This document shows, in pieces, positions 7,240 through 51,932 of a stretch of 64,000 nucleotides of DNA (within the stretch, counting starts at the first letter, position 1; every line of letters begins with the position of its first letter). The notes under the pieces were generated by a model. The model was not told where the DNA came from, made no database searches, and saw only the letters and a program-made list of their open reading frames with translations. A program made the translations under genes and the position numbers. The DNA is from Octopus vulgaris (lineage: Eukaryota): positions 65,410,001 through 65,474,000 of the forward strand of contig OX597821.1 in assembly GCA_951406725.2 (NCBI GenBank). The letters are read 5' to 3'.

Positions 7240-8038
7240 TTCAAACTTTGACACCAGGCCAGCAGTTTGCAGGGAAAGGAGTAAATCGATTACATCCACC
7301 CCCAGTGTTCAGCTGGTACTTATTTTATCGACCCCCTCAAGGGACGAGAGCCTAAATCGTTCCCTGCGAAATTTGAACTCAAGACGTAAAGACCGACGAA
7401 ATGTCGCTAAGTATTTTGTCCAGTGTGCTAACGATTCTTATTTCTTTATTGCCACAAGGGGCTAAACATAGAGGGGACAAATAAGGACAGACAAAGGGAT
7501 TAAGTCGATTACATCGACCCCAGTGCTCAACTGGTTCTTAATTTATCGACCCCGAAAGGATGAAAGACAAAGTCGACCTCGACGGAATTTGAACTCAGAA
7601 CGTAGCGGCAGATGAAATACCTATTTCTTTATTACCCACAAGGAGCTAAACATAGAGGGGACAAACAAGGACAGACAAAGGGATTAAGTCGATTACATCG
7701 ACCCCAGTGCTCAACTGGTACTTAATTTATCGACCCCAAAAGGATGAAAGACAAAGTCGACCTCGGCGGAATTTGAACTCAGAACGTAGCGGCAGATGAA
7801 ATACCTATTTATTTACTAACCACAAGGAGCTAAACACGGAGGAGACAGACAAGGACAGACAAACGGATTAAGTCGATTACATCGACCCCAGTGCGTAACT
7901 GGTACTTAATTTATCGACCCCGAAAGGATGAAAGACAAAGTCGACCTCGGCGGAATTTGAACTCAGAACGTAGCGGCAGACGAAATATTGCTAGGCATTT
8001 CGCCCGGCGAGCTAACGTTTCTGCCAGCTCGCCGCCTT
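7240..8038 (-). mobile_element. SINE family C: one head followed by three tandem ~183-bp body units, plus an older adjacent copy
   Basis: Units start at about 7440, 7623 and 7806; a single head at 7985-8038. Confidence 0.85.
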
Positions 8039-28450: not shown

Positions 28451-29236
28451 TTTATGGCAAAGTATTAAAAGAGAAATTTATATCGAAATGGAAATCAAGA
28501 ACGTGACCGAACAAAGATATTTTGGCTGGGAATTTATCTACATCAAAGAAGTAACTTTAATTTCTAACATAGTTACAAAGGCATAGATTTACAGGGGAAG
28601 CCACAGACATTCACAACGGACCCATGTGTTATTTCATGGGTTTTTCTCTAATGTATTATAATCTATGCAATCTGGTAAGAATTGGACTCAAAACGTCGTA
28701 GGGCTTAGCTAAAAAAAGGGCTTAGCGAAATATCTTTTGAAATTCATCATAGTCACAACGCTAACCGTTTCCGATGGTAGGTGGAATGGATAATATCTAC
28801 TTTGTACTTTTCTTACCGCTTATTTAGGAGACAGGGGAGAGCTCATGACCCTTTCAAGTAACATCAGGATTGGTGGGAGGAAGGCATCTTTACTCCGAAG
28901 ATGCAGCCTGAGTGCTTACAACAGAATGGATTCCGCTAAAGGCAGTTAAACTACCAGCTGATGTATGTTAAACCTGGATTAGGTCAACATCACAAGTCGG
29001 CTACAACGGGATTTGAACTAAGGACACGAAGAGCCGGAATATGTTGAAGCGATACACGTTTTGTCGAGAGGAAGCCAAAGGAAACACTGGTGGAATTCGC
29101 CGGAAGCGCCTCTGATGCGAAAATCGAGCATCAGAATCAAATGTATGGGTGAAAGACTAATCAAATCGTGTAGCAGCTTCTTCCCTCCGATGTTTGTCTT
29201 ACGACAGCTGACGCCAGCGGCAGAACAACTCGTAGT

Positions 29237-36798: not shown

Positions 36799-37189
36799 GG
36801 ATGGAAGCACTCCGTCGGTTACGACGATGAGGGTTCCGGTTGATCCGAATCAACGGAACAGCCTGCTCGTGAAATTAACGTGTAAGTGGCTGAGCACTCC
36901 ACAGACACGTGTACCCTTAACGTAGTTCTCGGGGATATTCAGCGTGACACAGAGCGTGATAAGGCCGGCCCTTTGAAATACAGGCACAACAGAAACAGGA
37001 AGTAAGAGTGATAGAAAGTTGTGGTGAAAGAGTACAGCAGGGATCACCACCATCCCCTGCCGGAGCCTCGTGGAGCTTTTAGGTGTTTTCGCTCAATAAA
37101 CACTCACAATGCCCGGTCTGGGAATCGAAACCGCGATCCTATGACCGCGAGTCCGCTGCCCTAACCACTGGGCCATTGCGCCTCCACAA
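36799..37189 (-). mobile_element. Full-length tRNA(Arg)-derived SINE family A with TSD
   Basis: Reverse complement of the 16563 copy; TSD cttctgcaat at 36789 and 37190. Confidence 0.9.
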
Positions 37190-37590
37190 CTTCTGCAATA
37201 TTATTACAATTAAACAAGTATTTGCCTAGGGTTACTTCTTGTAGTGATATGACTGACCTCTCATTATTGTCTGCTCTGTCTATGTCATTTTAATCATTAC
37301 ATCGTTGTCAATACTCCTCAAAAATTACTGTTAATCCATCATTGATTTATATTTCATCTTTACATAGTTCTTAATAAAATCAGTTTGGGGTGGAATCCAG
37401 CTGATCTTTTTCTTTCTTCAAAGAATCTGTTACCTTTCATAAAAGCTAATTCAGCAAGGATCCTTGTCTTGGATATACTTTGATTTCTTACCCTTTCTTT
37501 CTATGTTGGTTTCCAAATTGTTTCCCTCGGTTTTGGTATTCCTATATATCTGAGTGAGCACATGATTTCCTTCGAAACATATTGTGATTA

Positions 37591-38209
37591 TAGTAAAGAT
37601 TGTTTGCCAACAAAACATGGCAGTTCTGGTTTAGGACTAATGTTACTGTAAATTATCTCCAGGAGACATCGTATCCAGCTGGCTATATGACACGATCTGT
37701 GCCCTAATAATTTCGAACAAGGGAATCTAGCACCCCAACTCAGCTCAAAACAATACCTGTGTATCTAAATTACAGCAACATTAGTCCTAAACCAAGACTT
37801 TACTACAAAGTACTGTTTAATTTCACGTTGTGAGATCTAAAAAAATAGTAATTTTCTAATATATAAATCAGTGACTAGTTCTCACTTTGAAAACTATATA
37901 TTTCGAACGGGAATTTGGCAGCGCCATCTCTAACTGAACAATTATTCTGTGCTGATGAAGAGAAATAACTAAGAAATCGCGATACACAGATATTGTTTTG
38001 AGCGGAGTGGAGGGTGCTAGATTCCCTTGTTCGAAAATATAAGGACACAGATCGTGTCGTATGGCCAGCTGGAGACGATGTTTCCTGGAGCTAAATTACA
38101 GTAACATTAGTCCTAAACCAAGACTGCCATGTTATGTTGGCAAACAATCTTCACTACAAAGTACTGCTTAATCTCACGTTGTGAGATTTTAAAAAATAGT
38201 AATTTTCTA
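37591..38209 (+). mobile_element. Non-coding hammerhead-bearing element (~330-350-bp unit, 5' inverted arm, 12-bp TSD)
   Basis: TSD atattgtgatta at 37579-37590 and 38210-38221; 37591-37765 is the inverted copy of 37981-38156; 37766-37862 is repeated at 38092-38212. Confidence 0.85.
37946..37990 (+). ncRNA. Minimal type-I hammerhead ribozyme
   Basis: TCTGTG-CTGATGA-agag(aaataa)ctaa-GAAA-TCGCGA-TA-CACAGA: 6-bp stem I, canonical core, palindromic stem III; stem II decayed to 2 bp in this copy. Confidence 0.8.
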
Positions 38210-38387
38210 ATATTGTGATTACTACATACATTATTTAGTTTAACCGGGTGGTATTGATCATCGTGTGTTTCTTACCATATCTATGATGTCCAATTTTGTG
38301 TTTTAATTGCTGTCAGTATTTTCTCGCTCACCACTATATTTCGGAAGCACATTCTTTGGTCTTTAGGAAGCGCTTATTTTTATATAG

Positions 38388-51320: not shown

Positions 51321-51495
51321 TGTGTGTATGACAACCGATGCCGGTGTGTTTATGTCCCCGTAACTTAGTGGTTCGACAAACGAGAGGGATAGAATAAACA
51401 CTAGGCTTACAAAGAATAAGACCTCGGGTTGATTTCTTCGACTAAAGGCGCTGCTCCAGCATGGCCGCAGACAAAGGACTGAAACAAATGAAAGA
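51041..51495 (+). mobile_element. SINE family B
   Basis: Full head-body-microsatellite-tail layout. Confidence 0.85.
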
Positions 51496-51529
51496 AAAAA
51501 TAGGAAAAAAATTAAATATTACTCATTTG

Positions 51530-51932
51530 CTCTTTTACTTGTTTCAGTCATTTGAGTGTGGCCATGTTGGAACACCGCCTTTAGTCGAGCAAATCGACCC
51601 CAGGGCTTATTCTTTGCAAGCCTAGTAATTATTCTGTCGGACTCTTTTGTCGAGCCCGTAAGTTACGGGGACGTAAACACACCAATATCGGTTGTCAAGC
51701 GATGTTGTGTGGGGGGGACACGGAGACACAAACATATACACACATACATACATATACATATACATATATACGACGGGCTTCTTTCAGTTTCCGTCTACCA
51801 AATCCACTCACAAGGCTTTGGTTGGCCCAAGGCTATAGTAGAAGACACTTGCCCAAGGTGCCACGCAGTCGGAATGAATCTCGAACCATGTGGTTAGTAA
51901 GCAAGCTACTTACCACACAGCCACTCCTGCAC
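51530..51932 (-). mobile_element. SINE family B (inverted relative to its neighbour)
   Basis: Full copy in the opposite orientation. Confidence 0.85.

Follow-up and report, generated by a model that had tools for sequence, protein, structure and literature searches.

A hammerhead-bearing, ORF-less repeat in Octopus vulgaris DNA and its probable insertion by a Penelope-like protein

Positions 37579 to 38221 of a 64,000-nt stretch of Octopus vulgaris DNA (the window) hold a short ORF-less element in which an inverted arm stops close to the predicted cut of a hammerhead ribozyme. The first-pass annotation of the window read this arrangement as a trace of self-cleavage: the ribozyme would have made the template RNA's 5' end, and the copy would have been integrated by target-primed reverse transcription with inversion. 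The locus raises the questions of what wrote the insertion and whether the ribozyme set its breakpoint. We consider it probable that the insertion is old, that it belongs to an abundant non-LTR retrozyme family with a unit of ~350 nt, and that a Penelope-like (PLE) RT/GIY-YIG protein wrote it in trans. We found that the arm itself does not carry the end that self-cleavage would have made.

The element is bounded by two copies of ATATTGTGATTA that are identical at 12 of 12 positions (Table 1). Among 5,000 random end-pairs of the window, 6 reached a repeat of at least 12 nt, which is the chance level for such a TSD. Inside the TSD, the arm aligns to 37981-38159 over 178 nt with 89.9% identity (18 differences in 179 columns). 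Its outer end corresponds to 38156-38159 and adjoins the preferred 3' end of the family, which is described below, and its inner end lies 3 to 4 nt upstream of the scissile bond. The forward part (37765/37766-38213, 448 nt) makes 1.3 laps of a unit of ~351 nt; the lap spacing is 326 or 351, owing to the ~25 nt missing from the first lap. The deleted piece is present in the family, as seen in loose contig ends behind 37799. The arm differs from lap 2 by 10%, and the two laps differ from each other by ~5%. All six frames of 37579-38221 are closed, with no ORF and no open stretch of any length. The element has no terminal direct repeats other than the lap overlap, and no further copy of the unit was found elsewhere in the 64-kb window. 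The 2-kb bins around it have 35 to 40% GC. These results bear out four points of the first-pass annotation: the exact 12-bp TSD, target-primed insertion as read from it, the inverted copy of a downstream segment, and the more than one unit of a ~330- to 350-bp ORF-less repeat.

Table 1. Features of the element and the Penelope-like ORF of the same window (window positions)
Feature	Positions	Strand	Remarks
5'-truncated Penelope-like RT ORF, 421 aa	10585-11990	+	65% to best relatives
Left TSD, ATATTGTGATTA	37579-37590	+	its 3 final nt also fall in the aligned arm
Inverted arm	37588-37765	-	reverse complement of unit positions 37981-38159
5'-truncated first lap	37765-37862	+	equivalent to 38091-38213, with a private deletion of ~25 nt
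Complete ORF-less unit, 351 nt	37863-38213	+	contigs cross the 37862/37863 lap junction
Long imperfect rod-like stem, hammerhead at tip	37892-38043	+	fold of the unit
Type I hammerhead	37946-37990	+	predicted cut between A37984 and C37985
Stem I	37946-37951/37985-37990	+	6/6 pairs
CUGAUGA box	37952-37958	+	core intact
Stem II, AAAUAA loop	first pair 37960/37971	+	first pair broken in this copy
GAAA box	37973-37976	+	core intact
Stem III, 2 bp	U37977-A37982	+	encloses palindromic loop CGCG; then U37983, A37984
3' extension (tail) beyond the common 3' end of the family	38157-38213	+	small hairpin; ~55-60 nt
Right TSD	38210-38221	+	first 4 nt also match the unit (microhomology)

The numbering of the hammerhead core and the rule that places its cut are established, and we applied both to the motif. 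A hammerhead descriptor matched the window once, and none of 30 dinucleotide shuffles gave a match. One Rfam search gave three matches, none of them a hammerhead, and no Rfam hammerhead was found among the 150 of 279 window matches listed. With core and stem I intact, the canonical CUGAUGA/GAAA hammerhead of the first-pass annotation stands, and its helix sizes are as described in PMC4209133. The same annotation called stem II decayed, which is partly right. The first pair is lost in this copy (G.A; G-C in the family majority) and the middle pair is A-U (G-C in the majority), but the third G-C pair is kept. A check of the consensus on contigs showed that stem II is intact in the family majority, with three G-C pairs. 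We also found that the unit folds on itself (linear fold of -94.5 kcal/mol, z -3.8, 0 of 100 shuffles as stable). The circular fold gave a z of -3.1 for the plus strand and -3.7 for the minus strand (40 shuffles each). Because the minus strand folds as well, self-pairing does not mark a strand.

Part of the stretch is contained in 20 sequencing runs from 11 studies and four coded organisms, and none of these 20 is on record as RNA. We mapped four of the runs (X1, X4, X10, and X16), which consist of short assembled contigs, onto 37440-38360 at 80% likeness. The family is abundant: 8,334, 7,161, 5,558, and 714 contigs mapped to the region. The 714 contigs of X16, a run only guessed to be RNA, were not counted as evidence of transcription. 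In each of the four runs, sequence downstream of the hammerhead had several times the depth of sequence upstream; we did not use this contrast, since contig depth cannot rank parts and the downstream part occurs twice in the reference. Scans of metagenomes with two 23-letter motifs gave 0 matches each. The contigs also contained the locus itself. Its left junction was present with 0 differences in organisms A and B and with 11 differences and 6 gaps in organism D, and its right junction with 0 differences in A and with 11 differences and 21 gaps in D. The same insertion locus is common to these three organism labels, and an empty site was not seen. The presence of the junctions across organism labels indicates that the insertion is old, and the 5 to 10% divergence between its parts fits this.

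Copies differ around the ribozyme. Position 37984 is absent from all four A>C places counted (X1, X4, and X16), and A is thus what usually precedes the cut. In all three DNA runs, loose ends before 38012 form a diverged group (agreement, 0.63 to 0.65) with C for A just before the cut, possibly a second subfamily. Joints from 37902/37903 to 38028 in X1, X4, and X10 skip ~125 nt, so that the rod loses the tip that carries the hammerhead; these copies are recurrent ribozyme-less derivatives. One joint in X1 (38098 to 37876) belongs to a family copy with a 34-nt filler that starts with TTAGGG-like repeats, which we take to resemble telomeric repeats.

We found that the family has a preferred 3' end at 38151-38155. 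Three DNA runs have loose ends behind 38151 (32, 42, and 31 contigs), and X4 has 37 contigs with loose ends behind 38155. These ends are long (median, 255) and disagree with one another (agreement, 0.44 to 0.47), so many copies end at 38151-38155 in unrelated flanks. This copy runs on past that point into 38157-38213, a hairpin with a z of -2.0 (10 of 200 shuffles as stable). By analogy with PLE insertions (PMC3846280, PMC8557442, and PMC11167929), this extension may be a one-sided PLE-type tail. No second 3'-end cluster near 38213 was present among the best 24 of 1,236 loose-end rows. Near 38166-38170, both forward laps are without the same few bases that are present in the family majority.

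By its testable features, the family belongs with the metazoan non-LTR retrozymes, with predicted self-cleavage and a putative circular RNA. The class unit is ~150 to 450 bp with no ORF and a GC content below 50%, and the period here is 351. As described for the mussel (350 to 390 bp) and the axolotl (330/350 bp) (Cervera and de la Pena 2020, PMC7229834), the octopus unit is an ORF-less ~350-nt sequence of low GC with a canonical type I hammerhead and a self-paired fold, and its insert is longer than one unit, with a TSD longer than 4 bp (12 bp here). It shares with the description of axolotl HHR_Amex2 in that paper a 2-bp helix III closed by a tetraloop and, where helix II begins, a mismatched basal pair. 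In contrast to the tandem arrays described there, we found a dispersed copy of 1.3 units with an inverted arm and a tail, and the available sections of PMC7229834 describe neither arm nor tail for retrozymes. Among the papers listed, our literature search found no cephalopod or octopus retrozyme; the supplements of PMC7229834 and of a bioRxiv preprint (10.64898/2026.07.22.740005), which lie outside that search, may include this family or inverted copies of this type, and the octopus mention in PMC10886601 is a reference title only.

The arm and the tail are instead features of EN+ Penelope-like insertions (Arkhipova 2013, PMC3846280; Craig 2021, PMC8557442; Frangieh 2024, PMC11167929). Those insertions, as described, are partial tandems with a head-to-head, inverted, 5'-truncated copy, and they also have a one-sided tail, a TSD near 10 bp, a fixed internal 3' start, and an AT-rich target with ATT, all of which resemble the octopus locus. 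A typical Penelope structure is given as a direct repeat and an adjacent inverted repeat with a TSD of 8 to 10 bp and an optional tail of ~31 bp at one end (PMC3846280, PMC8557442). The purified PLE protein is reported to cleave and extend both strands and to start at two adjacent internal sites that bound the tail (PMC11167929). Unlike EN+ PLEs, the octopus element has no RT or GIY-YIG ORF, we identified no autonomous partner, and the tail measures ~55 to 60 nt rather than 30 to 40. The tail length counts against the PLE account, as does the fact that we found no partner PLE with a matching terminal repeat and that the PLE of the window has no DNA similarity to the unit. Noncoding elements are known among nonautonomous PLEs: MRC1 of Chlamydomonas is PLE mobilized and inserts head to tail, as described in PMC8557442. 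MRC1 differs in that it belongs with the Chlamys clade and in its 3'-end similarity to an autonomous family, which is described only there. A PLE origin of animal retrozymes has been argued (bioRxiv 10.64898/2026.07.22.740005). We conclude that this is a new sequence family of animal non-LTR retrozymes, probably mobilized by a PLE.

The window itself holds a PLE. Its RT ORF (Table 1) begins right after a (TA)n tract and is internally deleted, and what is left of the endonuclease domain, its C-terminal end, lies in another frame. We found no hammerhead descriptor match near it. This RT and the endonuclease remnant indicate that PLE machinery exists in this genome. The window as a whole is animal DNA with many microsatellites and short repeats, and the named relatives of its retroelement protein are mostly bivalve. 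On the minus strand, 27008-26066 has two open frames (138 and 160 aa) and is probably a retroelement remnant; the 138-aa frame presumably holds a CCHC zinc-knuckle-like motif. A 184-bp unit occurs as three head-to-tail copies with 94% matches at 7439-7987, a diverged 28S-derived piece lies at 29035-29178 on the plus strand (65.9 bits against eukaryotic LSU rRNA; gathering score, 50), and a long hairpin at 51409-51616, which hits Rfam MIR841 far below the gathering score, is probably two inverted short repeats. The flanks of the element (37170-37578 and 38222-38380) read like decayed minus-strand coding sequence with no match to Pfam or PLE proteins; two left-flank pieces gave 0 Pfam families. 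We rejected the idea that these flanks are a decayed PLE endonuclease (best E values, 0.47 by tblastn and 0.098 by profile).

We infer the following course of insertion from these footprints. The endonuclease of a PLE protein acting in trans would have cut the two target strands at points 12 nt from each other, and either 3' end would have primed a cDNA inside the RNA. The first cDNA would have started at the tail site (~38213) and run at least 448 nt through the uncut hammerhead into the previous lap; the second would have started at the main site (~38156) and run ~178 nt. The two would then have been joined head to head via 1 nt of microhomology (G37981, common to the arm and the forward start). 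The second cDNA would have stopped 3 to 4 nt past the scissile bond, which would most simply mean that the site was unbroken, and its stop would be an ordinary 5' truncation, probably favored by the structure of the rod and the ribozyme. Inversion would need no special cause by analogy with PLE insertions, in which an inverted 5'-truncated copy is described as routine (PMC8557442, PMC3846280). The hammerhead would act earlier, in the processing of multimers into monomers or circles that has been shown for other retrozymes, and would not fix the breakpoint.

The forward template may have been a circle or an uncut tandem. It was longer than one unit, which upholds that part of the first-pass proposal of a circular or tandem RNA. 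A rare A at 38121 is present in both forward laps, whereas the arm has the majority G. This A and the bases missing from both laps near 38166-38170 fit one template variant copied twice, and would do so for a circle and a linear tandem alike. Minority letters common to the arm and lap 2 occur at 38089 (the family has G in 77 to 98% of depth) and at 38102, where lap 1 has the majority letter. Since the arm carries these lap-2 letters but, at 38121, the majority G, it may come either from a second template or from a fold-back of the first cDNA.

The likelihoods that we attach to the main account and to its rivals apply to different steps, and their sum is not one. Fold-back survives best, and we still consider it unlikely. 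According to this model, there was one forward cDNA, which folded back or primed itself and so copied 37981-38159 without a second primer, and the inner end of the arm is the annealing point. The arm lies wholly within lap 2 and shares its minority letters, and among the 10 joints of other copies, at least 2 (37998/37937 and 38045/38025) have the rod axis or a local palindrome as their center of symmetry; self-priming has also been proposed for the inverted junctions of PLEs (PMC3846280). However, the microhomology here is just 1 nt, and the outer end of the arm coincides with the independent 3' start site of the family. The majority G at 38121, where both laps have the rare A, also argues against fold-back, as does an arm-lap 2 difference twice that between the laps.

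The self-cleavage model, in its surviving form, concerns the inner end of the arm only. The second template would have begun at the self-cleavage site, and RT would have run off its 5'-OH end. We found that the arm does end within 4 nt of the scissile bond, as annotated (a chance of 2.6% per unit beforehand), but not at the cut. Its sequence GATACACAG includes A37982, T37983, and A37984, the 3 bases upstream of the bond, whereas a cleaved RNA would start at C37985. The arm thus does not show that self-cleavage made the RNA end, and its cDNA most simply crossed an unbroken bond. An extra step is needed to explain TAT at 37762-37764: either a jump across the nick to the 5' fragment held by stem I or a filler that matched by chance, for which we estimate ~1 in 30 to 60 for 3 bases. 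The forward cDNA of this insertion crossed the whole intact site.

We then compared the breakpoints of other copies with the cut. Of 27 joints listed (15 of 245 and 12 of 133), 10 were used as head-to-head joints of other copies. The other 17 were splits between duplicated reference parts, plain deletions, the ambiguous 37847/38020, and the one row with a 34-nt filler. Relative to 37985, the arm-side ends lie at +62, +60, +20, +13, -2, +11, +74, +10, +1, and +27, and the forward starts, in the same joint order, lie at -103, +40, -41, -48, -56, +54, +108, -12, -136, and -12. Forward starts are upstream of the cut in 7 of the 10 joints, which indicates that uncut templates are common. Under assumed uniform ranges, the number of ends within 4 nt of the cut, 2 of 20 overall (P = 0.09) or 2 of 10 on the arm side alone (P = 0.12), is not a significant excess, and 0 of 20, a small sample, fall exactly at it. 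Arm-side ends do crowd between -4 and +30 (7 of 10; nominal P = 0.002, with the window of positions chosen post hoc). This count is small, and it is biased by the arm of the reference, which stops at this place, and by the self-complementary rod; the crowding just downstream of the cut could also come from RT stalling in the rod. Among the best 24 of 1,236 loose-end rows, which do include the 38151 cluster, there was no cluster at 37985.

Other observations speak for cleaved templates. The family hammerhead looks competent from its sequence, and most invertebrate type I hammerheads are reported to cleave well as monomers (PMC7761336), which makes such templates plausible. Ribozymes also make the precise 5' end of R2 elements (PMC3774820, PMC3414825), and the HDV-like ribozyme of R2 (PMC3774820) is in effect the model of the first-pass annotation, in which the ribozyme defines the integrated 5' end. 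In R2, as described, the cut matches the 5' junction, whereas the octopus arm extends past the cut and the majority of the copies sampled continue across it. For the single PLE that has been tested, PMC11167929 reports that the purified protein mainly used uncleaved RNA, that hammerhead mutants inserted normally, and that the site was neither the start nor the end of any RNA read. With 3 upstream bases in the arm, most forward starts upstream of the cut, and few ends near it, the proposal that self-cleavage made the template's 5' end is not supported. This copy does not establish a genomic fossil of self-cleavage, and we regard a self-cleaved second template as rather improbable.

Still less probable is that the unit is the pseudo-LTR of a longer coding PLE and that the copies are short 5'-truncated PLE insertions, with no independent ORF-less family. 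All of the footprints are PLE-type, and retrozymes and pLTRs are described as homologous in frogs (bioRxiv 10.64898/2026.07.22.740005). Against this, contigs run from the unit end straight into the unit start (80, 79, 48, and 6 in the four runs at 37861, up to 22 to 34 nt from contig ends) with no gap for an ORF, which favors an ORF-less head-to-tail unit over the terminal repeat of a coding element. Only 1% of mapped contigs, in each of the four runs, continue into unlike sequence, and no agreeing exit sequence was found among the best 24 of 1,236 loose-end rows, on which the evidence on exits rests. The hammerhead is also canonical, with a helix III, whereas many PLE hammerheads are described as minimal (PMC4209133). 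For this copy, we found no RT/GIY-YIG ORF in the element or its flanks and no similarity to PLE proteins there (best E value, 0.47). Two complete hammerheads were found in 0 contigs, which are too short to hold them, and this copy has one; an "active" element is defined by two complete units in bioRxiv 10.64898/2026.07.22.740005, more than this copy contains. Finally, L1-style twin priming on one RNA that starts at the cut was rejected, as it needs a 68-nt overlap of arm and forward start and leaves the arm end at the family 3' site unexplained.

Mobilization of animal retrozymes by PLEs was previously argued from co-occurrence and sequence kinship. The octopus family contributes footprint evidence on an ORF-less hammerhead unit, namely, a 3' start at a fixed internal position, a tail on one side only, arms joined head to head, and a long TSD. 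The family is abundant and common to at least four organism labels, which makes it a ready data set for breakpoint statistics. It is doubtful, on present counts, that in this family the second cDNA tends to stop at the hammerhead cut, whether the cut is open or is a nick bridged by stem I, often enough to make it a true hot spot. If it is, thousands of copies would record self-cleavage in vivo and two-ended priming by a PLE RT on retrozyme RNA, and both the mobilizer of retrozymes and the role of the ribozyme in transposition would be testable from breakpoints alone.
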